DNA of 64,000 bases from Spirulina sp. (GCA_044070495.1 JBIPSI010000014.1:1-64000), one strand, 5' to 3'. Counted from the first letter of the stretch, positions 1-14,006 are shown. The notes: generated by a model not told the origin, from the letters alone. A program made the numbers and translations.

Positions 1-118
1 GATGGGGTTCGTATCGGTCGATGAACTGACGGCCACAGGCCACGCAAATGTGATTTTGCTTACCCTGCTTTTTCCCATTCTTACGGATATGGGTGCCACC
101 GCATTCAGGACACTGCAT
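1..118 (-). CDS. IS1-family transposase, InsA-like N-terminus (partial)
   Basis: Manual translation MQCPECGGTHIRKNGKKQGKQNHICVACGRQFIDRYEPH has the CxxC...KNG...Q...CxxCGRQF signature; not in ORF track because truncated. Confidence 0.85.
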   Translation of the reverse strand, partial: MQCPECGGTHIRKNGKKQGKQNHICVACGRQFIDRYEPH

Positions 119-158
119 CCCTATACCTCCTCACTTCATACTCCAATTATGCAACGCC
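1..158 (-). mobile_element. Left end of an IS1-family insertion sequence (continues beyond window start)
   Basis: Minus strand begins GGCGTTGCATAATTGGAG at 158 (IS1-like terminus), followed by GAGGAGG RBS and an InsA-like zinc-ribbon ORF. Confidence 0.8.
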
Positions 159-315
159 GTTTTTGGTGATGTATGTGTTTCTCAAGGTAAATGGCTGGGA
201 TCTGAATGCGCCAGAGCCGGAGGTGGTGTTGATGATGCAGGCACTGGCGGCGGGAGATTTATTGGAAGTGCAGTTGGCACAGTGGCTTGAGCAATATTCT
301 TCAAGGTCAGGATAG
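159..315 (+). pseudogene. doc: 3' fragment of a death-on-curing (Doc/Fic) toxin gene interrupted by IS1
   Basis: Frame from 160: FLVMYVFLKVNGWDLNAPEPEVVLMMQALAAGDLLEVQLAQWLEQYSSRSG* resembles the Doc C-terminus that follows HPFxDGNKRTA; abuts the IS end. Confidence 0.7.
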
Positions 316-464
316 CCCTGGTGTGGAGGTTATCCCGCTAAGTGGGATTCGGATGGCAATTGTCAATTGCTACCCCGCATCGGCTGCGATCGCTTTGCAA
401 ATAGCAGTTGATTAGGAGTGGCGATCGCGTAGTTTCAATAGTAAGAACGTAAAGCGGCAATAAT

Positions 465-734
465 CTACGGAAATACTCGATAGATTTCTCTTCGATGACG
501 TACCCTTGCAAATGTAATGGCGTCATCTTCAAAGAAAAAGCCGATACGATAATCACCGACTCGAATCCGATAGGCGTTATCCTCCTCTTTCAGCTTCTTC
601 AAATTAGGAATTTGCTCCAAGTGGTCATAAGAGGGAAGATCCTCAAAGACCAAGGTTTTAATTCGTCTATAACTCGGGCTACTTTTCAACGATTTGAGGT
701 CTTTAATGAAGCTGGGTAAATACTTAACCTTCAT
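465..734 (-). CDS. RelE/ParE-family type II toxin
   Basis: 89 aa basic protein with KKLK...YRIRVGDYRIGF...HRREIYR motif. Confidence 0.9.
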   Translation of the reverse strand: MKVKYLPSFIKDLKSLKSSPSYRRIKTLVFEDLPSYDHLEQIPNLKKLKEEDNAYRIRVGDYRIGFFFEDDAITFARVRHRREIYRVFP

Positions 735-958
735 TAATTATCACTCTCCAAGTCTTTTAGCGCATCTCCTCGACTGAGGGGGGTTTCGTGGCGTACCGCT
801 TGCATGGCCTGGTAGAGCCCTTCGTCATCCAGTGCTTCTAAGAGGTGCTGATAATCACTCAGGTTTAGAACTACTTTCTGAATTTGCCCGGTATTGTCCA
901 TGACAAACTCCTGGACGAATGGATAGTCTTCTGCAGAGAGGGACTGGCTGATGGACAT
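734..958 (-). CDS. Putative antitoxin
   Basis: 74 aa acidic protein (YQHLLEALDDEGL) directly upstream of the RelE gene; stop and start overlap (TAATG). Confidence 0.8.
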   Translation of the reverse strand: MSISQSLSAEDYPFVQEFVMDNTGQIQKVVLNLSDYQHLLEALDDEGLYQAMQAVRHETPLSRGDALKDLESDN

Positions 959-1084
959 TGATTCAGGCTCGGTTTGTGGATATTCGGATGCAGATATGGG
1001 ATGTGGTTTGATTATAGGCTGATCCAGTAGTGGAACGGCGGGTTGGCTCTACCTGCATTTCGGTAGAGCCAGAAGGGTTGTGAG

Positions 1085-1115
1085 TGTTGGGTTTCCTTCG
1101 CTGCACCCAACCTAC
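1085..1115. repeat. REP-like palindromic element (…CACCCAACCTAC)
   Basis: TGTTGGGT...CACCCAACCTAC; related copies at 35259-35343 and about 45831-45850. Confidence 0.65.
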
Positions 1116-1132
1116 GGAGAAGGGCGATCGCA

Positions 1133-3103
1133 CTATTGAAAAGCCTGTCTAAATTTCGGATTGTACCGTGGGTCATTCCTGTCCCAGTACATAGGATGAC
1201 TTCCACTTAATTGGCTAGGTTGCTGATACTCAGGTGCATTCGCGCCTGATGCGTTCGACTTGTCCCGCCTCTCTAATCCGTGGTAAGTCGTTAGCTGTTG
1301 ATTCCACGCTCGGTTCGTTCCTGGACTTTGCGTGTGACCAGTTTGGTTAAAATGCACGCTTGCACCCATATCATGGCCAAATACGACATTTCCGTGTCCC
1401 TGCATAAACACAGGATCCTGCGTCCTGCTGTTTGGTGAATAGGTAATGAAGTTGCGATTTGGCGATAATAACCAATCTTCTCTCGATGGCCACCTGTTTG
1501 GGTCGTACGGCGTATTTGCCCCTCCTTCTAAGAGGTCTAGTCCGATTGCCGAATCGTGCGGCGGATTGTTATAACCGAATAGCGCCCTCCGATTTGGGCG
1601 GGTTACACTCAATTTCTTTATAAATGCGTTTATCTCTCTTTCATCTTGTATCGTCAATAAGCTGTTTGTCAGAGGATGGATTCCAGCCTCCCGCCACATT
1701 CTCAAACTTTTCGCTACACGGGTCTTCGTATCGTCTGACCAATTCGTTGGATCCGTCTGCTCGGTGTCGATGGTAATCGTTCCATATGGGAATTTGAACG
1801 CTTGTATCGACGGTGGATTCATCCGAACTTTCACTTCGACCCTACCCTCACCGTGCACGATCTTTTCTTTACTCGTCTCCCCTACTTCTGCCAGATCCTC
1901 TCCTGCCCTGTCCTCCCTGTCCACTCGCATTTCGTGCGTGGACTCAGCTCCTGCCTTTTGTGCTCCAGTATCTTCTTGTTGAGTCGGTAGCCACGGTTGC
2001 TTATGCTCGGGCCACCTCAGCACCACTGGCTGCACTTCGCTTGCCCCAACCCACGATTTCTTTTCGGTGAGTGAGCCGCTAGTGAGTGTCGGGTTGATGG
2101 GGAGCGACCGACCTCCCATCGCATTCGTTTGCCTCTCCTCTCCCATTCGTGCTTCTTGCAATGCAGACCCTGGCTGTCGGTTTGATTTGTGATCCAGTTG
2201 CGATCGCTGTACCGCCCCCCCATTCTGCTGCACCACATGGGTCAATTCGTGGGCAATCAACTCTTGCCCACCGCGATTTTCCGGTTGATAAGCACCCTGG
2301 CGAAAGAAAATATCCTGTCCTGTGGTAAATGCCTTCGCTTGGATCGAACGATTGAGTTGGTCAGACTGACTATCGGTATGTACGCGCACACCGCTGAAGT
2401 CGGCCCCCATGGCTTGGCCCATTTGCATCTGCAAGGTAGACGCTAGGGCTTGTCCATTTCCCCTAGCCCGCTGAATTCCAGCTTCTAGGTCGGGCGAAGC
2501 ATTCCCTTCTACAACGCCTTCAGAGAAGGCCGATTTCATTTGCAGTTTTACTCCAGGGGGCATTGCTGACCGCTGAGGCATTGGTTTCATCTGTAGTCCA
2601 TCGTCTTCAGACATTTCTAGCCGCTGAATCATCGGCTTCATTTGTAATTCGTCTTCTTCGTCGGGTAGGGTTTCCCGCTGAAGCGTTGACTTCATTTTCA
2701 AGACAGGTTGCTCTGGCCAAGCCTGTCGTTGCACAGATTGGGCTTGATAGGTTCGATTTTCGTTAGGCGGATTGGCCGTAGGCGCATGAATGCGCTGCAC
2801 CACCTGAGCCGCCACGCGGTCGGCTTCTTGCTCATACTTGTCATTGGGTGCGCCGATGGTGAGTTTGGGTTGTAGGGGTGGGGGCGATCCACCCGCCGCC
2901 CGAATCTGAAAATTCAGCTTGGGAAAGGTGGGGGCGCTGTCTAGGGCGGGGGCATTGGGGGCCGCTAGGTCGAGAGCCTGGACATCAGAAGCCGCTACAT
3001 CCGTCTGGGGTGCAAAGGGGCGCGGAGCCATCGCCTGTGATGGGGCGGCAACAGGTGATGGGGCTGATTTTTTCTGAAAACCCGGTTGCGACGGCTGAGC
3101 CAT
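1133..3103 (-). CDS. DUF4157 (eCIS core domain) protein with C-terminal putative nuclease toxin domain
   Basis: LQPKLTIGAPNDKYEQEADRVA, LQMKP..QR repeats, MGADFSGVRVHTD...AKAFTTGQDIFF...LIAHELTHVVQQ; tip GH...HFN..GH...NR.WN...Y.GLE...SN.SG. Confidence 0.9.
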   Translation of the reverse strand: MAQPSQPGFQKKSAPSPVAAPSQAMAPRPFAPQTDVAASDVQALDLAAPNAPALDSAPTFPKLNFQIRAAGGSPPPLQPKLTIGAPNDKYEQEADRVAAQVVQRIHAPTANPPNENRTYQAQSVQRQAWPEQPVLKMKSTLQRETLPDEEDELQMKPMIQRLEMSEDDGLQMKPMPQRSAMPPGVKLQMKSAFSEGVVEGNASPDLEAGIQRARGNGQALASTLQMQMGQAMGADFSGVRVHTDSQSDQLNRSIQAKAFTTGQDIFFRQGAYQPENRGGQELIAHELTHVVQQNGGAVQRSQLDHKSNRQPGSALQEARMGEERQTNAMGGRSLPINPTLTSGSLTEKKSWVGASEVQPVVLRWPEHKQPWLPTQQEDTGAQKAGAESTHEMRVDREDRAGEDLAEVGETSKEKIVHGEGRVEVKVRMNPPSIQAFKFPYGTITIDTEQTDPTNWSDDTKTRVAKSLRMWREAGIHPLTNSLLTIQDEREINAFIKKLSVTRPNRRALFGYNNPPHDSAIGLDLLEGGANTPYDPNRWPSREDWLLSPNRNFITYSPNSRTQDPVFMQGHGNVVFGHDMGASVHFNQTGHTQSPGTNRAWNQQLTTYHGLERRDKSNASGANAPEYQQPSQLSGSHPMYWDRNDPRYNPKFRQAFQ

Positions 3104-3232
3104 AGCGCACCTCTAAGCACAGTTAGGATGTCCTATTGTTTCATGATGAGTGGGGTTGTGCGGCTAGACAATGGTCGAATATTGGCGTTGCCGGGGCACG
3201 TCAGATGGGGGTTGAAGGTGGGGATAAGCTGG

Positions 3233-5197
3233 TCACACCCAGCCTTTTACTTCGGTATCGGTGAGGGGGCGTTCGAGTTTGAGGTATTCGCTGCGGGCGG
3301 CTTGCAGCAGGTGGGCCATGGCGATGGGTTGGTCGGCATCGGCGGCGAGGAAGGCGGCGTTGAGGGCGATGTTGCGGATGTTGCCGCCGGGGACATTAAG
3401 GCGGGCCAGTTTGGCAAAATCCAAGTCAGCCTGGGGCGCTTGGGGGGGGAAGCTGCGCCGCCAAATTTCCGTGCGCTGGGCCACATCCGGGAAGGGGAAC
3501 TGCACCACGAAGCGAATCCGGCGTAGGAAGGCTTGGTCGAGGGAGGCTTTCAGGTTGGTGGTGAGGATGGCCAAGCCCCGGTAGGCTTCCATGCGTTGTA
3601 GTAGGTAGCTCACTTCTAGGTTGGCGTGGCGGTCGTGGGAGTCTTTGACTTCGGTGCGTTTGCCAAAGAGGGCATCGGCCTCGTCGAAGAGCAGCACCAC
3701 GCCGCTGCCCTCGGCGGCATCGAACACCCGGCGCAGGTTTTTCTCGGTTTCGCCGATGTATTTACTGACCACGGCACTGAGGTCGATGCGATAGACATCC
3801 AAATCTAGGGCATGGCCCAAAATTTCGGCGGAGAGGGTTTTGCCCGTGCCGCTGGCCCCGGCAAAGAGGGCGCTGATGCCTAGGCCGCGTTGTCCCTTAT
3901 CGGCAAAGCCCCACTGTTCGTAGACCTTGGCCCGCTGGCGCACGTGGGCGGCCACTTCCTTGAGGATGGCCATTTCTCGGTCGGGCAGCACCAGATCGTC
4001 CCAGGTGGCGGCGGGCTGGATACGTTCGGCGAGGGCATCGAGTTGGGGGCGAGCCTGGGTGCGGCAGGCTTGCCAAAGGGCGTTGGCAAGGTCGGTGTCG
4101 GCGTGACCTTGCACGGTGTAGCAGGCGGTTTCAATGGCGTCTCGGCTGAGGTTGAAGTGGGACACTAAACGGTTGAGGTGGCCATTCAACGCGGCGACTT
4201 GATCCCCCAATTGTTCTGACCAAATCTGCCGCTGTTCCTGGGGCGAGGGCAGGGGCACCTCCTGGGCCACCTGAGGCCGCTGGCTGGGGGCGCGTCGTTC
4301 TGGGGCCGTCAACATTAGGGGCGCACCAAGGGCATCCACCAGGTAGACCATGGCCCCATCCCGTTCTGGGCTGGGGTGTTCGGTGTCACCAGAGAGCAGC
4401 AGCACCCGCCGATGCAGTTGCCATTCCCGTTCCCACAGCTTGCCCAGGGATTGTACCTGGGCCGGGTCGGTGGGTAGGGCAGTAGCCGCCAGGGTCCACA
4501 GTTCTAGGCCGAGCAGATCGCCTAGGGCCGCAGCGGTGGCAACCAAGCTAGATCGATCTCGTCCCCAGAGGTGAATTAGGGGCAGGGGCCGCTGGGCCTG
4601 GGAGGCCGACACCCAAGTTTGGGCCAGGGAGGTTGCTAGGCGATGGTGCGCCTCAATGATGGGCTCCGGAAAGATCCGCTTAGCCCCCAGCCCCAGCAAA
4701 CGTTCGTGGAGGGAATGGTGACCCATGAGGTCGTGCAGAATTTGCTCATCCAGCCGTAGGGGGCTGTCTACTAGGGCATTGCCGGGGCCAATCTCCACAA
4801 CTTGCCAGCGACGCAGGGGGGCATTGGGGGGCAAGGCTGTCCAGTGGGCATCGGGGCTAAGGGCGAGGGCCAAGCTCCAGGTGGGGTAGGGGCGATGGGG
4901 GGGCACGGCGGCACAGAGGGCGGGCCATTGGGGATCAAGCTCCAGGCCCAGGCAGAGCAATACCACCTGGCGCTCGAAGGCGGAAAGACCGAGGTGGCGG
5001 CAGAGGTGATCGAGGGTGGGGGAGTGGGGAGTGGGGAGTGGGGTGTCGGGAGTGGAAATTGGGGTGTCGGCGGGGGCGAGAGCCTGGAGACGCTGGTGGA
5101 GGGCGGCCACTTCGGCCTGGAGGGCTTGGTCGTTTGTGGAGGAATCCTCTAGGGTGATGGTGGCGGACAAGGGATGGGAATCGGCGGGGAAAGTCAT
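3233..5197 (-). CDS. AAA+ ATPase, eCIS Afp15/Pvc15-like
   Basis: Walker A GASGTGKT, Walker B LLFDEAD, VVSKYIGETEKNL, HDRHANLEVSYLLQRME; start moved to ATG 5197 so it does not overlap the upstream gene. Confidence 0.9.
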   Translation of the reverse strand: MTFPADSHPLSATITLEDSSTNDQALQAEVAALHQRLQALAPADTPISTPDTPLPTPHSPTLDHLCRHLGLSAFERQVVLLCLGLELDPQWPALCAAVPPHRPYPTWSLALALSPDAHWTALPPNAPLRRWQVVEIGPGNALVDSPLRLDEQILHDLMGHHSLHERLLGLGAKRIFPEPIIEAHHRLATSLAQTWVSASQAQRPLPLIHLWGRDRSSLVATAAALGDLLGLELWTLAATALPTDPAQVQSLGKLWEREWQLHRRVLLLSGDTEHPSPERDGAMVYLVDALGAPLMLTAPERRAPSQRPQVAQEVPLPSPQEQRQIWSEQLGDQVAALNGHLNRLVSHFNLSRDAIETACYTVQGHADTDLANALWQACRTQARPQLDALAERIQPAATWDDLVLPDREMAILKEVAAHVRQRAKVYEQWGFADKGQRGLGISALFAGASGTGKTLSAEILGHALDLDVYRIDLSAVVSKYIGETEKNLRRVFDAAEGSGVVLLFDEADALFGKRTEVKDSHDRHANLEVSYLLQRMEAYRGLAILTTNLKASLDQAFLRRIRFVVQFPFPDVAQRTEIWRRSFPPQAPQADLDFAKLARLNVPGGNIRNIALNAAFLAADADQPIAMAHLLQAARSEYLKLERPLTDTEVKGWV

Positions 5198-5210
5198 GGG
5201 CTGGTATCCG

Positions 5211-6671
5211 TCATGGGGCAGCGTCTGTGTTGGATGAGACATAGGCTTGGCGGGCCTGCCTTGCCCGTTGCAAAAGCTGGAGTAGGTTTTTGGTGGTTTC
5301 ATCCTGCACCGTGCCATACTCGGCAATCTCGGCTCGTAGAGAGGCCACCTGTTCCGATAGCCCCTGTTCGCGGCTCATCACCACTAGGGCCATGTCCTCA
5401 AACAGCATGGCCAGCTCCCCTAGTTCGTCGGGGCGGCGGGCCACGGCAGCAAGATCATCGGCAGGGTACTGATTCTGCTTGACTTCGTTGGCGGTTTGCG
5501 ACAACCGCTGAATGGGTCGGGTCAGCCAGCGGGAGAGGGCCACACTCAGCAGGGTCACGGCTCCTGTGATGGCCAACCCCCACCACAGGGTACGACGGGC
5601 ATTTTGGTAAATTTCCCCGGCAAAGTCGGCTTCTGGAACGGTGACCACCATCAGCCAGTTGAGGTTGTCGTGGCGGAAGGGGCGAATTTCTACCCAGTGG
5701 CGTTGACCATTAAGGGTGATCAAAATCGACTTTTGGGCATCGGGATCGGTCAGTTCAATGGCGTTTTGGGCAAGGTATTGAGCGGTCGCCTGAATCTGAG
5801 GATCTGGGCTGTCCTGGGCTTGGAGACGCACCGCCCGCCCCGACGTATCCGCCTCAAAGGGTAATCCTTGGGACACCGCCACCAATTCCCCCCGGTTGCT
5901 GGGGTTGAGATCCACAATAAAGGCCTTGCCGTTCTCGCTCACCTTGAGGCTGTTGAGAAACTGACTGAGGGATTCCAGATACACATCCACGGCTATCACC
6001 CCCGGCACCTCGCCCGCCACTGTGGGTAATGGGGCCGCCCGCGTCAGGGTTAAGTCGGGTGGATTGGCCGAATAGTAAACCTCTGTCCACAGGCTTTGCT
6101 GGCTGGCCTGGGCATCTTTATACCATTGACGTTGGCGAGGATCGTAGGGTTGCATGACTGGGTCGCCCACCGGGTCGCCCTGGTCATTGAGGGTATAGGC
6201 TTGGCGACTATCTCCCGTGCTGGCATCTCGGCGGGCGTAGCGAAAGGTGCCGTTGGGCAGTCGCCCCATCAGGATAAAATCACCGCGCTGGTCGCCATAG
6301 TACACCGCATCCACAACGTTGGAATATTGCATCAAATGCCAGAAATATTGGCGCATTCGTTCTAGATCATCGGCCCGCAGCCCTCCCGCTATCATTTCCA
6401 TTTCCACGAGATCGGCCAACTGCGCCGTTTGGGTAATGTGATCGTCTAGGCGCTGTTCAATGCGGTTTGTGACCTCGGTGTTGATGGTGTTAATGAGCTT
6501 AGCTACCGCCGCCCGACTGGTATAGAAGGCCAAGGTTCCCGTCAGGCCAATTCCCATCACCAAGGGCACCAGCATCATCAGGGGTAATGTCCACCGGATC
6601 GACAGCCAACGTTTCACCGTCGGTCGAGATGCAGGGGATTGAAGAGACGGGGTTACAACGTTTGATGCCAT
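5211..6671 (-). CDS. Membrane protein with Cache and HAMP domains, no output domain
   Basis: TM1, YDPRQRQWY Cache motif, second Cache lobe (WLMVVTVPE), TM2, HAMP (RPIQRL...RPDELGELAMLF), short coiled-coil tail. Confidence 0.85.
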   Translation of the reverse strand: MASNVVTPSLQSPASRPTVKRWLSIRWTLPLMMLVPLVMGIGLTGTLAFYTSRAAVAKLINTINTEVTNRIEQRLDDHITQTAQLADLVEMEMIAGGLRADDLERMRQYFWHLMQYSNVVDAVYYGDQRGDFILMGRLPNGTFRYARRDASTGDSRQAYTLNDQGDPVGDPVMQPYDPRQRQWYKDAQASQQSLWTEVYYSANPPDLTLTRAAPLPTVAGEVPGVIAVDVYLESLSQFLNSLKVSENGKAFIVDLNPSNRGELVAVSQGLPFEADTSGRAVRLQAQDSPDPQIQATAQYLAQNAIELTDPDAQKSILITLNGQRHWVEIRPFRHDNLNWLMVVTVPEADFAGEIYQNARRTLWWGLAITGAVTLLSVALSRWLTRPIQRLSQTANEVKQNQYPADDLAAVARRPDELGELAMLFEDMALVVMSREQGLSEQVASLRAEIAEYGTVQDETTKNLLQLLQRARQARQAYVSSNTDAAP

Positions 6672-6726
6672 AGGATCATGTCCTCCGCTGATGGACTGAG
6701 ATTGGGGGCAGGACTAGGGAAATGGG

Positions 6727-7119
6727 CTACGGAATTTGCACAGTGAACTGCCCCGGATTGAGGATAGAAATCACCCCGGCCCAGGCACACATGCATTTGC
6801 TGCTGTTGTTCAAAGCGGGAAAGGTACCCAGCAACACCGTGGGCGATCCTGGTGCCCAGGGGGCCACCGTCACCGGAATGCAGGGCATGGGGGTGAGGAC
6901 TCCAAGGGCCGCCGCCGTTGCCGCCGCCACCGTGGGATTGGCTATGGACGTACACATCCCGAAGGGCAGAATGTTGACCATCGGGGCAAAATCCATAATG
7001 CTCGCAGCCAGTGGCCCCCCAGCCATCGTCGGTGGCCCCTTGGGAATCACCATCAACGCACTAGGCGCTACCCCAAAGGAACATTGCAACGTTGCTCCCA
7101 TCACCACCTGTATGCCCAT
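6727..7119 (-). CDS. DUF4280 PAAR-like spike-tip protein
   Basis: GATLQCSFG...NILPFGMC...PMPCIP...W.PG...SKCMCAWAGVISI. Confidence 0.9.
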   Translation of the reverse strand: MGIQVVMGATLQCSFGVAPSALMVIPKGPPTMAGGPLAASIMDFAPMVNILPFGMCTSIANPTVAAATAAALGVLTPMPCIPVTVAPWAPGSPTVLLGTFPALNNSSKCMCAWAGVISILNPGQFTVQIP

Positions 7120-7204
7120 CGTTAATTACCCTCGGTTTTGGTGGGCGGGGAAACCCCACCCCTACGGTTGGTTGGATTTGGCCTATCCCCTATCCCCTAA
7201 TTCC

Positions 7205-9187
7205 TCAATTGATTTTCACGACGCCCCCCTGGATTTTCGTCATGCCGCTGCCCTGAACATCCACCATCGCCCCCTGCACCTTGGCCGATCCGGTCGCTTT
7301 TACCGTCACCTGCATCCCGCTAATCTCAATGCCTGATTGGCTGATTTTGATAGAGTTGCCGCCCACCTTCAGGGTGATATTTTGGGCTCCAGTGAGGGTA
7401 ATATTGCCGCCCTTGATGTCAATATTGCGGCTAGTACCACTGGTGCCCGACTGAATCGTCATATCCCCGGTAGAGGTGAGTTCGACCTTCGTGCCGTTAT
7501 CGTCTAGGCGCAGAAAATGGCCCCCGGTACTTTTGATTTCGATTTTTTTGTTTTGATCATCCAAGCGGGCCTGGTGTCCAGCGGAGGTTTTCAGTTCAAC
7601 AAATTTATCGGTGTCGTTGAGGTGCAGTTTGTGGGCACCTACGGTTTCTAGGTAGGCTCCTTTTTTGCTGTCGCCCTTGTCTTCTTCCACAAATTGCAGC
7701 TTGTGGCCTACGCGGGTTTTGAGGGTACGCAGGCGCACTTTGCCATCGGCCACATCATTCTCGGCGGTTTCCGGTGGTGCATCCTTGCCATTCCACAGGC
7801 CGCCCAGCACGTAGGGTCGATGGATGTCGCCATGTTCAAAGGCCACCAGCACTTCATCGTTAATTTCGGGCAGGCAATCCAAACCCCGACTGGCCCCCGC
7901 GCCGACGGAAACTACCCTGGCCCAGTTGCTCATGTGTTCTTCGGTGAGGGAGGGAAACTTGACCCGCACCCGGCCCCAGTTTTTGGGATCTTTGTTGTCG
8001 GCCACAATGCCAATCAGGCAGGTTTGCCCCGGTTGGAGCTGGCTGGGCGGCGAGAGAATCTGAAGTAAATCGCCCCCGCGCAGCCCCCGCACGCTAAATT
8101 CCGTGGTGTAGACCCGCTCAAAAAACAGGTGGCGGGTTTCGGTGACGTAGTAATCGCCGCTGTACTTGTCCATGTTGGTCAGCTTGACGACCTTGCCCGG
8201 ACGAATTTGGGGATTTCCCTCGCTGCGGGCATCGGCCTGGATAAATTCGCCCCCCACCTCGCCGTAGAGCGCCCCGGCCAAGGTCGTCGCCTCCGCCGCC
8301 TGAGACATCACCTGATCCACCACCACCAGTTTGGGACTGCTGGGCTTGCCGCTGAACTTTGTTTTATCGGTGCCCGTACCCTGGTCGGTGCTGGTGATCA
8401 CCGCGCTGCGACTGGTGCTGGTGGCGACGATGGCCTCCTTTTTGCTGTAGTCCCAGCCCCGCACTTCCACGCTATCCACCTGTTCGGCGCTGCTCACCTG
8501 TACCCGAAAGCTGTGCAGTTCCTTCAGCCATTCCAGGCTAAGGCTGCCGTCTTTTTTGGGTTTGCGAAAATTAAGTTTGCCATCCTGCACAAACAACTCA
8601 TAGCCGTGGCGAGCCGCCCGTGATCGCAGGAATTCCATATTGGTCTGGTTTTCCTGGAAAATGTAGCCGCTACTGCCGCCAATGTCACCATAGCCGTAGG
8701 GGCCACCCGTATCGTCCACCGTGCCCGTCGATAGGCCCACTTCTCCGGCGATTTGATTCACAATGTCGGTGTCGGTCTTGTTTTGAAAGGAACGGCTCTG
8801 TCGCCCCCGGTGCAGCCGATGGGAGGCATCGTAGCCCCGCACAATAATCGGCGCTTGGGCATCGCGGGTAAACTGGGTTTCGATGGCGGTGATCTCCCCC
8901 TTCAGCAGCACCCCCTCGGCGGCATCGTCAAACTCCGCCTCCTCCGTGGCACTGGAGATAAACCCCAACTCCACCGTCTTACCAATGGCGAAGGAATCCC
9001 GATGTTTCCACACCGTATCGGCCTCGGCCCCAGGGCGATAGTCGTTGCGCAGCACCAGGGTAAACATCCCCGGCAGGTGCAGGCTTTCCTCCACGGAAAT
9101 TTGCAGAATATCCTCCAGCACCGCCGCCCCCACGGCCTGACCATCGACCTTGAGAATCGGTTTAGCAATGTAAGAAATCGCTGGCAT
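7205..9187 (-). CDS. vgrG: VgrG-like spike protein (gp27 hub plus gp5 OB fold)
   Basis: ISVEESLHLPGMFTL, QENQTNMEFL..RA.R.G, DPKNWGRVRVKFP...WARV....AG..RG...LPEINDEVLVAFEHGD, beta-helix C-terminus. Confidence 0.9.
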   Translation of the reverse strand: MPAISYIAKPILKVDGQAVGAAVLEDILQISVEESLHLPGMFTLVLRNDYRPGAEADTVWKHRDSFAIGKTVELGFISSATEEAEFDDAAEGVLLKGEITAIETQFTRDAQAPIIVRGYDASHRLHRGRQSRSFQNKTDTDIVNQIAGEVGLSTGTVDDTGGPYGYGDIGGSSGYIFQENQTNMEFLRSRAARHGYELFVQDGKLNFRKPKKDGSLSLEWLKELHSFRVQVSSAEQVDSVEVRGWDYSKKEAIVATSTSRSAVITSTDQGTGTDKTKFSGKPSSPKLVVVDQVMSQAAEATTLAGALYGEVGGEFIQADARSEGNPQIRPGKVVKLTNMDKYSGDYYVTETRHLFFERVYTTEFSVRGLRGGDLLQILSPPSQLQPGQTCLIGIVADNKDPKNWGRVRVKFPSLTEEHMSNWARVVSVGAGASRGLDCLPEINDEVLVAFEHGDIHRPYVLGGLWNGKDAPPETAENDVADGKVRLRTLKTRVGHKLQFVEEDKGDSKKGAYLETVGAHKLHLNDTDKFVELKTSAGHQARLDDQNKKIEIKSTGGHFLRLDDNGTKVELTSTGDMTIQSGTSGTSRNIDIKGGNITLTGAQNITLKVGGNSIKISQSGIEISGMQVTVKATGSAKVQGAMVDVQGSGMTKIQGGVVKIN

Positions 9188-9415
9188 AGACAGGCCCAGA
9201 CCCCATATCCGTGACGCCCCTCTAGGATAGACAGGCTTGGGCGGGCGGGGTATTCCACTTAGGTCGAGTGTTGGGCTGTTCTAGGGCATGACGGTAGCGT
9301 CGAAGACCCAGGCCCCAGGCTACACTAGGCAGTAGGCAACACAGCCCCCTCCATGGGCACCTTCGAGACGCGATTCGACCCCTGTTGCTCTGCCATTGCC
9401 TAGGAAACCCCTACC

Positions 9416-10174
9416 ATGGTTCAAGCTCAGCCCCGCACTGGCCCCGTCATCACCTGGCCGCCCCTGCCCGACGATTTCAAGCTCATCGACGACCCAGTGG
9501 AAAACCTTCAGCAACCGCCCCTCGCCGCCGCCCTCACCGATGCCCTGGGGGCGGCCCAACGCCTTCGCCCCGAAATGCTGGTTGGCTCTAACTTTGGCCT
9601 CGTGGCCGGGGTCGATAACGAAACCGTAGTCAAAGCCCCCGACTGGTTCTACGTGCCGAGGGTGAATCCGGTTCCCGATGGACTTGTCCGCCGCAGCTAC
9701 ACGCCCCAAATGGAAGGCGATCCGGTGGCGGTGGTGATGGAATTTCTCTCCGCCGATGACAACGGCGAACTGTCCATCCGCGCCATGCCCCCCTACGGCA
9801 AGCTTTACGTTTACGAGCAAATTCTCCAGGTACCTGTGTACGTCATCTATGAACCGATGCGCGGTCGCCTAGAGGTGCGGTCTCTGCAAAATGGGGGTTA
9901 TGTGCTGCAAACCCCCGATGCCGCCGGACGCTTCTGGATTGAACCCCTGGGCCTGTTCCTCGGCGTATGGCGCGGGGAACGGCTGGCCCAAACGATCAAC
10001 TGGCTGCGCTGGTGGGATGCCGACGGCAACCTCCTGCTCTGGAGCGCCGAACAAGCTGAAGCCGAACGCCAAAGAGCCGAAGCTGAATGCCAAAGAGCCG
10101 AAACCGAACGCCAACGGGCTGAACGTCTAGCGGAGTTGCTCCGTGCCCAGGGCATTGATCCGGATCAGGTTTAG
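9416..10174 (+). CDS. Uma2-family endonuclease-like protein
   Basis: KAPDWFYVP, VMEFLS, GKLYVYEQIL; C-terminal AEAERQR coiled-coil repeats. Confidence 0.9.
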   Translation: MVQAQPRTGPVITWPPLPDDFKLIDDPVENLQQPPLAAALTDALGAAQRLRPEMLVGSNFGLVAGVDNETVVKAPDWFYVPRVNPVPDGLVRRSYTPQMEGDPVAVVMEFLSADDNGELSIRAMPPYGKLYVYEQILQVPVYVIYEPMRGRLEVRSLQNGGYVLQTPDAAGRFWIEPLGLFLGVWRGERLAQTINWLRWWDADGNLLLWSAEQAEAERQRAEAECQRAETERQRAERLAELLRAQGIDPDQV

Positions 10175-10286
10175 GGTAGCCCTCGTCTCTCAACGAAAGT
10201 CCCTGGAGTTTATGGGCGATCTGTGGATCGTTCAACCGCTATTCAGGGCTGGACAACCCCGGCCCCCAGGGAGCAATATCCCTGGG

Positions 10287-13200
10287 TTAAGCACTGAAGT
10301 ACTTGGCCACCGGGTGGTAGGCAATGATCGCCGTGGTGGATTGTTCGGGGTAGAGCTGCTCGCTTTCGTCGATGGTCATACCGATGCGGTCGGTTTGCAG
10401 CAGGTCGAGCTGGACGGGCTGATCGGCCATGTTGGGGCAGGCCGGATAGCCAAAGCTATAGCGAGAGCCTTGGTAGCGCTGCTGCAAGATTTCCCGAATG
10501 GTGGCGGGTTCCAGATCACCAAAGCCCAGTTCTTGGCGAATGCGGGCGTGGCTCCATTCCGCTAGGGCCTCCGCCACCTGCACCGATAGGCCGTAGTAGT
10601 AGAGGTAGTCGGTGTATTGGTCAGCCTGGAACAGCTTTTGGGCAAATTCCGTGGCAATTTCGCCCACCGTCACTGCCTGCATGGGGAAAACGTCAAACTC
10701 GCCCGGTTTGGCCATCTCCTTTGGCAAAAAGAAATCCGCAATGCAGAGCCGCCGCAGGGATTTTTGGCGCGGGAAGGTGAAGGTGGCGATGGGATCAGGG
10801 TGGTGGGGTGGTGGGGTGGTGGGATGGTGGGGTGTGCTTTCCTCGCCATCTCGCCATCTCGCCATCTCGCTATCCACTACTGAGGGATCGTAGATGTGCA
10901 GCGAATTTCCTTCCGCCAAGCAGGGGAAGTAGCCGTAGACAATCTGAGGGTGGAGCAGGTTTTCGGCCAAAATCCGCTGCTTCCAGTTGTCCAAAATGGG
11001 ATGGACGGTTTCTTGCAAGAAGGCATCGTACTCCTCACGGGATTGCTCCTGGGGTTTGCGGAACTGCCACTGACCGACAAAAAGCGCCTGCAAATCCAAA
11101 TACCCAAAGACTTCCTCCAACGAAATATCCGCCGAAGTCAGGACTTTTGTACCCCAAAACGGCGGCGTGGGACGAGGAATCGCGGGATCGACGGCTTCGG
11201 ATCGAGTGGTATCAACGGGAGTCGGGAGTTGGGAGTCGGCAGTCGGGAGTTCAGACTCCGTTTCCAAATTTTGCCCTTTGCCTTTTGAATTTTGAATTTC
11301 CTTGCTTGCTTCCGACTCCTCATCCAAAAAGCCCTTCAGATCATCCCAATTCCCTGCGGCCTTGGCGGGCATCAGTTTGTCCATGAAGTGCAAATCTGAG
11401 AAGGCGTCTTTGCCGTAGACCACTTTGCCGTTGTAGGTGCGCTGGCAATCGTCGTGGACGAATTTGGGGGTCAAGGCCGCGCCGCCAAGGATAACGGGAA
11501 CGGTGATGCCCTCTTGGTTGAAGGTTTCCAGGTTGTCCTTCATGAATGCGGTGGATTTCACCAGCAGGCCGCTCATGGCGATGCAATCGGCGTGGTGCTC
11601 CCGGTAGGCTTGAATGATGGCTTCCACGGGCTGTTTGATGCCCAGGTTCACCACCTTGTAGCCGTTGTTGGACAGGATGATGTCCACCAGATTTTTGCCG
11701 ATGTCGTGCACGTCGCCCTTGACGGTGGCGATGATGAAGGTGCCCTTGCCGGAGCCGTCGCTGTCGGCCTTTTCCATGAAGGGTTCGAGGTAGGCCACGG
11801 CGGCTTTCATGGTCTGGGCCGATTGCAGCACGAAGGGCAACTGCATTTGCCCGGAGCCGAACAACTCGCCGACCACCTTCATGCCGTCCAGAAGGAATGT
11901 GTTGATAATTTCTAGGGGCGGGTAGGTTTCCAGCGCCTTGGCCAGGGCGTCCTCTAGGCCGATGCGTTCGCCGTCGATGATGTGCTGTTTGAGCTGTTCA
12001 TCAATGGGCAGATCCTTGGCGATGGCCTCTTTTTTCTTTAGGCTCTTGCCTTCAAACAGCGTCGTTAGTTTAGTGAGGGGATCGTAGGTAACGATGTCGC
12101 CATCAAACTCGCGGCGGTCGTAAATGAGATCCCGGCAGACCTGCTGATGCTCCGGCTCGATTTTGGCCAGGGGCAGAATTTTAGCGGCACTCACAATCGC
12201 GCCATCCAGCCCCACTTGCATCGCTTCGTGGAGGAAGACCGAGTTGAGCGTCACCCGTGCGGCAGGGTTGAGACCAAAGGAGACGTTCGACACCCCCAGC
12301 ATGATGTGGCATCCCGGCAGGTTTTCGGTAATCATCCGAATCGATTCGAGGGTTTCCCGACCGTTGACCCGGTCTTCCTCAATCCCGGTGGAGATGGGTA
12401 GGGCTAGGGTGTCAAAGAAAATTTCGTGGGCGGGAATGCCGTATTCCAGAGCATCCCGGTAGGCGCGTTGGGCGATGGCAAACTTCTTCTCGGCGGTGCG
12501 GGCCATGCCGTCTTCGTCGATGGTGCCGACCACAATTCCGGCCCCGTATTTCTTAGCCAGTTCGAGGACTTTGAAGAAACGCTCGTCGCCATCCTCATAG
12601 TTGGTGGAGTTGAGGATGCACTTGCCCCCGGCCACCTTCAGCCCCGCCTCCATCTTCTGCCACTCGGTGGAGTCGAGCATCAGCGGCAGGGTCACGTTCG
12701 TCACCAGGCGAGACACCAGCTCGTGCATGTCCCGTTCGCCATCGCGCCCGACGTAGTCCACGTTCACGTCGAGGACATGGGCACCTTCCTTCACCTGCGC
12801 CCGCGCCAGGGCCACCAAGCCATCCCAGTCCTCGGCGTTCAGCATTTCCCGGCATTTCTTAGAACCACTGGCGTTGAGGCGTTCCCCCACAATCAAAAAG
12901 GAGTTGTCTTGCTCGTAGGGCTGGGTGCTGTAGATTGACGCGGCTGAAGGGACGTAATGCAGCGCCGGACGGGGGTTGGGGTAGTGGGTTGGGGTGGTGG
13001 TGGGGTGGTGGGGTAGCGCCATCTCACTATCCCGCCATCCCGCCATCCTCACAGGCCGTTCCTTGGGCCGCAAATCCTTCGCCAACTCCGCCAGTTGGGC
13101 GATGTGTTCGGGACGGGTGCCGCAACAGCCACCGATGACTTGGACACCGAGATCCTCTACAAAGTGCATCAGCGACATCCGCAGTTCCATCGGGGTGAGG

Positions 13201-14006
13201 CGATAGACCGCTTGGCCCCCCACGTTTTCCGGCAGTCCGGCGTTGGGGATACAGGAGATGGCGAAGGGCGATTGTTCCGACAAATGCTTGACGTGATCCT
13301 TCATCAAGTCTGGCCCGGTGGCGCAGTTGAGGCCGAGAATGTCGATGGGATAGGGTTCCAAAATGGCCAGGGCCGCCGCCATTTCGGTACCCACTAGCAT
13401 GGTGCCCTGCTGTTCCATCGTCACCGAAACCATCAGGGGCAGGCGCTTGCCCGTGGCGACAAAGGCTTCCTCGATGCCGTTGAGGGCCGCTTTAATTTGC
13501 AGCACGTCCTGGCAGGTTTCCACCAGCATCAGGTCTACCCCGCCGTCGATTAACCCCCTGGCCTGCTCCACGTAGGCGTCTTTGAGGGTGTCGAAATCAA
13601 TGTGCCCCAAGGTGGGCAGTTTCGTCCCTGGCCCCATGGAACCCGCCACAAAGCGAGGCTTGTCAGGCGTGGAAAACTCGTCAGCCACACTTCGAGCCAG
13701 TTCCGCAGCGGTTTTGTTCAGCTCGTAGGCCCGATCCGCCAGGTCGTACTCCGCCAACACAATGGAGGTGCCGCCGAAGGTGTCGGTTTCAATCACATCT
13801 GCGCCAGCTTCTAAAAAGGCGCGATGCACCGTGGCCACGGCTTCGGGTTTGGTGACCACCAAGTATTCGTTACAGCCTTCGTACTCTGGGCCGCCAAAGT
13901 CTTCCGCCGTTAGATTTTGTACCTGCAAGTTCGTCCCCATGGCCCCATCAAAGACAAGCACGGGACGATCTTCACTGTGGAGGCGATCCAGAAAGGCGTT
14001 GGACAT
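10287..14006 (-). CDS. metH: Cobalamin-dependent methionine synthase
   Basis: [32 protein letters not shown]12 motif, [10 protein letters not shown]. Confidence 0.97.

Follow-up and report, generated by a model that had tools for sequence, protein, structure and literature searches.

The subject of the present work is a group of five genes at positions 1133-9187 of a 64,000-nucleotide stretch of DNA recorded as Spirulina sp. (GCA_044070495.1, JBIPSI010000014.1:1-64000); the whole stretch is called the window below. Base 1 of the window is the end of contig C14 of a 5.31 Mb draft genome, which consists of 74 contigs and is 97% complete. The nearest named records were Phormidium sp. FACHB-1136 (96%), metagenome-assembled genomes (MAGs) of Nodosilinea (92-93%) and a Leptolyngbya MAG (88%), and the host is a Nodosilinea-like filamentous cyanobacterium. 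A first-pass annotation had assigned the five co-oriented genes to a contractile injection system (CIS), and both their families and their coordinates were confirmed by the open reading frame (ORF) listing and by Pfam, all of them being encoded on the minus strand. They code for a VgrG-like spike (7205-9187, 660 amino acids (aa); Phage_base_V 2.1e-27 in Pfam, VgrG_rel 355.8 bits in NCBIfam with a cut-off of 275), a DUF4280 PAAR-like spike tip (6727-7119, 130 aa; Pfam 2.4e-35), a membrane protein with dCache_1 and HAMP domains (5211-6671, 486 aa), an AAA+ ATPase with an N-terminal winged-helix domain, WHD (3233-5326 as called; Pfam AAA 3.8e-23, WHD 1.2e-14) and an eCIS_core/DUF4157 protein, the putative cargo toxin (1133-3103, 656 aa; Pfam 3.1e-32). 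The gaps between them, from VgrG to the DUF4157 gene, are 85, 55, 13 and 129 nucleotides (nt). Since the ATPases of the relatives align only from residue 44 on, the start codon is most likely the ATG at 5197 (residue M44), 13 nt past the stop of the Cache-HAMP gene, which gives a gene of 3233-5197 coding for 654 aa. The ATPase occupies the Afp15/Pvc15 position, and its orthologues in the relatives adjoin VgrG/DUF4280 or the cap gene. [quoted passage not shown]

The remaining parts of such a machine were sought with family profiles over the whole genome, as the annotation had suggested for sheath, gp19 tube, gp25, baseplate J and DUF4255, and by tblastn with 28 query proteins (structural parts, unassigned neighbours and flanking genes). 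All the parts named were found, on contigs C7 and C30. In the tblastn search each structural part occurred exactly once, and the VgrG, the DUF4280 protein and the ATPase of the window were the sole copies of their type, so that the count of VgrG paralogues, also proposed earlier, came to a single one. On C7, at 40.4-53.8 kb, profile searches located the sheath along with four gp19 tubes, two small paralogues and CIS_tube, and an ORF of 2391 aa takes the tape-measure position ahead of CIS_tube; the operon is headed by a small Pvc16_N gene (C7:53914-54474, minus strand). Divergently from the sheath operon run the genes for a histidine kinase, for a response regulator of the GerE type (C7:56868-57590) and for a Pvc16_N cap protein of 424 aa (cap gene at 57.6 kb). 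The position of the small second Pvc16_N gene directly before the sheath suggests a two-protein cap, as in Anabaena Cis16A/B; a 189-aa plus-strand ORF lying over this small gene is probably spurious. The profile searches placed gp25, J, P2_I (345 aa), a 473-aa Cis13-like protein and a transmembrane (TM) WD40 protein at 47.9-55.6 kb of C30, preceded by a BrnT toxin gene, one neighbour without family assignment and defence genes. The N-terminus of the Cis13-like protein matched CIS13_fam (4.5e-12, 45.9 bits as against a cut-off of 370), and a Kyte-Doolittle scan of this protein detected no hydrophobic segment or helix.

Taken across C7, C30 and the window, the core known from the antifeeding prophage (Afp) and the Photorhabdus virulence cassettes (PVC) is complete (sheath, tube, cap, gp25, J, spike, tip, ATPase and DUF4157), and the C7 and C30 blocks are both devoid of spike, tip and ATPase. 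Within the genome the PAAR_motif profile gave no match and DUF4280 gave one; the T6SS sheath VipB/TssC had no match in the 97%-complete assembly. Two other tail clusters are present, built from other part families and each with small gpV-type spikes of its own. On C3 the P2-like tail genes form two blocks about 26 kb apart, one with sheath and FII tube (76820-79600) and one with tape measure, GpU, X, V, W, J and I (105474-115012), while the cluster at C40:13672-40445 is of a different phage-tail type and encodes an S8 peptidase of 1716 aa as well as an RHS-repeat protein. Upstream of the gp25 block, at C30:46968-46996, lies a 24-29-nt element of which exact copies occur at more than 25 places in the genome. 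The description of the five genes as a stand-alone module was not borne out, as the genome holds exactly one matching sheath/tube/cap/tape-measure block, on C7, and exactly one baseplate block, on C30. Since the VgrG, the DUF4280 protein and the ATPase are the only copies of their type, they form the system's own spike complex rather than a spare one.

The synteny comparison that had been proposed was carried out on related genomes. In G024, which belongs to the same genus and is assembled in 7 contigs, and in G237 the cap, VgrG and J genes are found on one contig; the gene order is the sheath operon on one side and histidine kinase, response regulator, cap, VgrG, DUF4280, (in G237) Cache-HAMP, AAA, DUF4157 copies, gp25 and J on the other. 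The G237 locus (contig C43, L094) belongs to another family, is contiguous in the gene order of the window and has a sheath 87% identical to that described here. In G005 and G019 the same three genes are on three different contigs, as in the window genome, and the VgrG module keeps the order of the window. The earlier annotation had considered that relatives might carry a complete system in the same order, split here by one rearrangement, and had named this as a refutation of its reading. G024 and G237 do carry the complete locus, and the stand-alone reading is thereby refuted, although the split needs at least two breaks instead of one. Compared with G005 and G019, the five genes have ratios of non-synonymous to synonymous substitution rates (dN/dS) of 0.03-0.19 at dS values of 0.43-0.93 (VgrG 0.055-0.062, DUF4280 0.03-0.06, Cache-HAMP 0.17-0.18). 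Since these ratios are low relative to two species that share the split, the split system has been kept under selection. A wider survey covered 80 named cyanobacterial loci with this type of VgrG, the flank reaching 3 kb or more upstream in 59 and 8 kb or more downstream in 54. CIS_tube lies directly upstream of VgrG in 49 of the 59 loci; downstream, on the same strand, gp25/J follow in 19 of the 54, AAA/DUF4157 in 4 and neither in 31. Because these 31 loci continue into neither baseplate nor ATPase/DUF4157 genes, fragmentation after the spike gene looks common in cyanobacteria.

Since the parts occur once, the three blocks are complementary and relatives hold the same genes contiguously, the module is very probably the spike, tip, sensor, ATPase and cargo third of one Afp-like CIS that is scattered over at least three loci.

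The dispersed pieces have a sequence element in common. An imperfect palindrome, T(C/A)GACC-N2-(G/T)GTCTA, was noticed by eye in the upstream regions and was then tested with patterns and with a position weight matrix (PWM); an automatic search for 10-mers shared among these upstream regions had found none. This 15-mer, called here the 'CIS box', is present in the window at 3165-3179 (minus strand), its first base 76 nt before the likely ATG of the DUF4157 gene (25.9 bits), and in a weaker, VgrG-type variant at 9254-9268 (minus strand), 81 nt before the ATG of VgrG (16.7 bits). The distance is 76-96 nt for four orphan DUF4157 genes, 81 nt for gp25 (in-frame ATG) and 73 nt for the small Pvc16_N gene at the head of the sheath operon. 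Eight sites of this genome served to build the PWM, which was then run over 10.6 Mb of it; thirteen hits reached at least 17 bits, the best seven (21.3-25.9 bits) were all before CIS genes, and the copy before the DUF4157 gene of the window had the top score in the genome. No gene starts at the expected distance from the six non-CIS hits at this threshold or from several weaker hits, and these were taken as chance. With the loosest pattern there was no enrichment over the genome (68 hits versus approx. 51 expected).

The VgrG-type element is conserved before VgrG in G005, G019, G024 and G237, and the motif also stands before the DUF4157 genes of these four genomes. When 109 loci from other genomes, which are enriched for CIS genes, were scanned with the PWM (3.70 Mb counting both strands), 37 hits were obtained; three came from duplicates of the G005 and G019 loci, and their removal left 34. 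Of these, 28 precede, on the same strand, a CIS gene (VgrG in 16 cases, DUF4157 in 7, tube in 4 and gp25 in 1); three more were reverse readings of palindromic sites, two were an identical 15-mer in the sheath/histidine kinase spacer of G024 and G237, and one had no explanation. The VgrG-linked sites, in 16 non-duplicate cyanobacterial loci, were 69-82 nt before VgrG, except two at 144-149 nt. Since a separate copy of the motif lies within the 129 nt that precede the DUF4157 gene, the module probably consists of two transcription units, VgrG to ATPase and the toxin gene, rather than one operon. Scans for consensus promoters and terminators returned sites no more frequent than in shuffled sequences, and the Rfam search of window positions 1-10400 (E up to 0.1) gave no match. 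The presence of a common motif before every piece suggests that the pieces are switched on together. The binder of the 15-mer would be, we infer, the GerE-type response regulator encoded near the cap. The layout of the 15-mer as two half-sites resembles, we presume, that of NarL-type sites.

The Cache-HAMP protein has hydrophobic helices at residues 23-50 and 361-380, which bracket the extracytoplasmic Cache domain (dCache_1 46.1 bits, cut-off 45); the second helix is followed by HAMP and then by about 55 residues only, with no output domain. HAMP and the two C-terminal helices after it are conserved across the family. In a HMMER alignment with PctA (1.5e-11) all five residues of the amino-acid-binding motif were conserved, Y121, R126, W128, Y144 and D173 of PctA corresponding to Y176, R181, W183, Y199 and D229. 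The domain thus retains the full motif, and an amino acid is predicted as the ligand. The motif is intact in the window protein, G005, G019, G252 and four of the five rows from Potamolinea and families f10/f11; in G237 the first position is F, and in G173 an F stands at the additional position equivalent to Y129.

The annotation had treated this protein as the module's own membrane sensor. The sensor is there, but it is not private to the module: it is a conserved accessory of the CIS lineage, encoded after the baseplate genes in most of the relatives examined. Matches to dCache-HAMP (E up to 1e-20) were present in 223 of the 301 genomes of the class, most of them fused to output domains. Two sets of 20 loci were examined, the best ones with an open frame of 460-547 aa (short form) and the best ones with longer frames. 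In 16 short-form loci the gene either stands in the order gp25, J, P2_I, Cis13-like, Cache-HAMP, WD40 or adjoins VgrG, and in one more it lies beside the WD40 gene alone; four of the 20 longer-frame loci are also beside CIS baseplate genes, which makes 20 of the 40 in all. Two of the CIS-linked sensors, in G062 (L114) and G173 (L120), are 631-639 aa long and carry an extra C-terminal domain that binds cyclic nucleotide monophosphates (cNMP; 6.5e-23 and 6.9e-17). The sensors of L115 (G235) and L122 (G160) have lengths that match the cNMP-bearing form; the domain was scanned in L114 and L120 only. When 46 rows were placed in a quick maximum-likelihood tree, a separate clade (SH-aLRT 94) was formed by the 17 fused long sensors, and the window protein grouped with those of G005, G019, G237 and G252 (98-99). 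The CIS-linked forms may have a single origin. In the genome described here the gene is missing from its usual slot on C30, between the Cis13-like and WD40 genes, and is located between DUF4280 and the ATPase, as in G237. A complex prediction of the Cis13-like protein with two copies of the cytoplasmic part of the Cache-HAMP protein scored 0.01, which is evidence neither way. In a literature search, with subscription journals outside its scope, no paper was found that connects a CIS other than the T6SS with Cache or HAMP domains or with split loci.

It could be argued that the Cache-HAMP gene is an unrelated signalling gene which hitch-hikes in CIS loci and has no part in the machine. The wide distribution of dCache-HAMP proteins, the varying position of the gene, its lack in G024 and in the Nostocales loci and the loss of the binding motif in the closest short forms outside CIS loci (G194, G117) would fit such a view. 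However, it is the short, output-less family that accompanies CIS genes in half of the loci examined, across several families, the linkage has survived relocation in the clade of the window (G000, which is the window genome, G005, G019, G237 and G252), and the gene is under purifying selection. We therefore regard the hitch-hiking explanation as rather unlikely.

The putative toxin bears on a second explanation, according to which the module is a mobile, interchangeable spike and cargo cassette that swaps spike and toxin for a resident machine. In the DUF4157 protein of the window an HExxH motif is visible in the translation, within the N-terminal module. Four further DUF4157 genes are dispersed on C14, C8, C19 and C13, each of them preceded by the 15-mer; their products share the N-terminal 300 residues with the window protein at 47-60%, and the C-termini differ. 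The C-terminal domain of the window protein (approx. residues 500-656, 160 residues) is conserved, with many invariant H, D, N and S residues; seven homologues were found, two of which sit behind DUF4157 and GNAT domains. Neither Pfam nor NCBIfam has a family for it. A structure predicted from an 8-row alignment was too poor for a fold search (mean predicted local distance difference test score 53.5), and the ESM Atlas recognition value (1104) was below the useful range, hence its hits to giant-virus DUF5899 were disregarded. One of the orphan proteins, C13:37782-40235 (L032:9782-12235), has a barnase-type ribonuclease domain (1.2e-06) at its end, and the gene after it codes for Barstar (C13:40266-40754, L032:12266-12754; 2.9e-22), which makes a toxin-immunity pair outside any CIS block.

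Besides this C-terminal polymorphism, the surroundings of the module may speak for a cassette. It is flanked upstream by Uma2 (9416-10174, plus strand) and MetH (10287-14006, minus strand) and downstream by the toxin-antitoxin (TA) genes RelB (734-958) and ParE (465-734), both on the minus strand and, like the other two, assigned with Pfam. The boundary drawn in the first-pass annotation, a divergent Uma2 gene and a patch of TA and insertion sequence (IS) genes, therefore holds for Uma2 and RelB/ParE, but the supposed IS patch is merely a 131-nt contig-end repeat (1-131), an IS fragment outside the system; its sequence recurs with 100% identity at the end of C57 and at the start of C51, and its minus strand encodes the start of a Zn-finger transposase-like ORF. 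A further 35-nt element just past the stop of the DUF4157 gene (1080-1116) is a small dispersed repeat with more than 60 copies of 88-97% identity on most contigs of the genome. Nucleotide homology to G005 and G019 stops at 9273-9275, just outside the CIS box of VgrG, and the upstream genes differ among close relatives, MetH and Uma2 in the window versus GshB, ThiG and PIN in G005/G019 and in Phormidium sp. FACHB-1136; one MAG contig runs into Uma2 as the window does. In FACHB-1136 the orthologous module is interrupted, between its CIS ATPase and DUF4157 genes, by three genes with a defence-type look, for an AAA_15/AAA_21 ATPase, DUF3226 and Uma2 (L135:16339-18841). Similar arrangements are the T6SS auxiliary vgrG islands, in which VgrG, a PAAR-like tip and an effector are encoded away from the sheath and baseplate genes, need co-regulation and are extra copies beside a complete main cluster. 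The module resembles them in that spike, tip and cargo are set apart; in contrast, it holds the only spike, and no TssC was found. Each genome has a single VgrG, DUF4280 and ATPase of this type, hence no exchange partner, neither the C7 nor the C30 block encodes a spike, and no integrase or transposase bounds the unit. Thus, of the idea of an interchangeable cassette serving a CIS encoded elsewhere, the service in trans is retained and the interchangeability is not, and we judge exchange by a mobile cassette to be improbable.

The fragmented locus beside TA, defence and IS genes could also be a decaying remnant, that is, a CIS broken by rearrangements whose pieces are out of use. All the CIS genes in the window, on C7 and on C30 have open frames, however, and the low dN/dS values relative to the two species that share the split, together with the motif kept at each piece, make decay very improbable. 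An autonomous, sheath-less spike system with its own sensor, suggested at first by the compact and co-oriented arrangement of the five genes, can practically be discarded, since one Afp-type sheath/tube/cap set and one baseplate set, both spike-less, are present elsewhere in the genome with each complementary part in one copy, and all relatives examined have tube, cap or baseplate genes beside the VgrG homologue or elsewhere in the genome.

Several observations weigh against a single scattered and co-regulated CIS with a ligand-binding sensor. The split is read from a draft of 74 contigs in which the three blocks are on different contigs, and the module ends 1.1 kb from a contig end, so that the split holds at the level of contigs; on the other hand, MetH and 138 kb of other genes lie upstream of the module, and C51 and C57 hold no CIS homologue. 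The VgrG-proximal copy of the motif is weak (approximately rank 17 in the genome), and its support is the conservation in relatives; the counts within the genome are partly circular, because the PWM was built from sites of this genome, and the related loci scanned with it are kin, not independent. The Pseudanabaena-type loci, which have the sensor, give no motif hit of at least 17 bits, and the link between the regulator and the motif is inferred. As regards the ligand, 12 Pseudanabaena-type rows end the binding motif in N, the residue before it being F in 11 of the 12, and, according to PMC8915833, amino acid binding is abolished by the D173N exchange. Finally, there is no Cache-HAMP homologue between DUF4280 and AAA in G024, and the Nostocales loci are also without it, thus the sensor is not universal.

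If the module is indeed one third of a scattered CIS, the parts would assemble in trans. A VgrG trimer with the DUF4280 tip would sit on the baseplate encoded on C30, the tube and sheath from C7 would polymerise on this baseplate along the 2391-aa protein in the tape-measure position, and the ATPase would help to load DUF4157-tagged toxins. The fragmentation would be tolerated because the system is a regulon, each unit having the palindromic 15-mer 73-96 nt before its start codon, and the likely binder would be the GerE-type response regulator, encoded with the histidine kinase next to the cap gene. The dCache-HAMP and TM-WD40 proteins may form a checkpoint or an anchor at the membrane through which assembly or firing is coupled to an extracytoplasmic ligand, in the clade of the window probably an amino acid, with CisA of Streptomyces as the model. 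Going further, and only tentatively, one can imagine a ligand-gated, cell-bound CIS whose output-less dCache_1AA-HAMP protein senses amino acids, e.g. from damaged neighbours, and licenses docking, assembly or firing through its cytoplasmic helices, the whole dispersed set including the orphan toxins forming one regulon through the 15-mer and the cap-linked two-component system, which would let the locus fragment freely. The new leads worth testing are the output-less, CIS-linked sensor of the amino acid type and the regulon motif. Split systems would be missed or mis-scored in surveys of extracellular CIS (eCIS) in which contiguous core genes are a requirement; the upstream motif could be used as a simple finder for dispersed CIS parts and orphan cargo toxins and gives a handle on co-regulation.

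Among the known systems, the Afp/PVC eCIS (PMC8213781) have the same gp19 tubes, sheath, Pvc16_N cap, gp25, J, VgrG, PAAR-like tip, AAA ATPase and DUF4157 marker, and a GerE-type regulator and a kinase adjoin the locus likewise. Unlike there, the genes described here are in at least three loci instead of one operon-like cluster, the five DUF4157 proteins are dispersed, no receptor-binding tail fibre is recognisable, and the dCache-HAMP and TM-WD40 proteins take the tail-fibre position. The thylakoid-anchored CIS of Anabaena PCC 7120 (PMC8894136) is also cyanobacterial and shares the DUF4157 effectors, the bipartite cap (two Pvc16_N proteins here) and a Cis13-like N-terminal domain encoded after the baseplate genes. 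However, the Anabaena cluster is contiguous (all3313-all3327), its spike is more distant from the VgrG (4e-23), Cis13 has a C-terminal TM helix and Cis12 a long extension, whereas the Cis13-like protein has no hydrophobic helix and P2_I is 345 aa long.

Among the sensors of the PctA type (PMC8915833), the dCache_1AA domains have the same five motif residues, and the spacing of these in the window protein is in their range. In contrast to them, it has no MCP, kinase or cyclase output, only HAMP and about 55 C-terminal residues, a cNMP-binding domain being added in two other lineages. The cytoplasmic CIS of Streptomyces coelicolor (PMC12237407) offers the closest solved spike, a multicellular filamentous host and a membrane protein with an extracytoplasmic domain of the ligand-binding type encoded after the baseplate genes. 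Contraction depends on this protein, CisA, for which the role of a sensor and checkpoint has been proposed. It is bitopic with a solute-binding-like domain, whereas the protein described here has two TM segments, dCache_1 and HAMP; the two were compared by description only. Since the domains differ, the Cache-HAMP protein is an analogue and not a homologue of CisA by domain content, and by this analogy it may play the corresponding functional role. For the trigger of firing in cell-bound CIS, CisA is the sole checkpoint proposed (PMC12237407). A conserved sensor with a predictable class of ligand would provide a testable checkpoint candidate in a second phylum.

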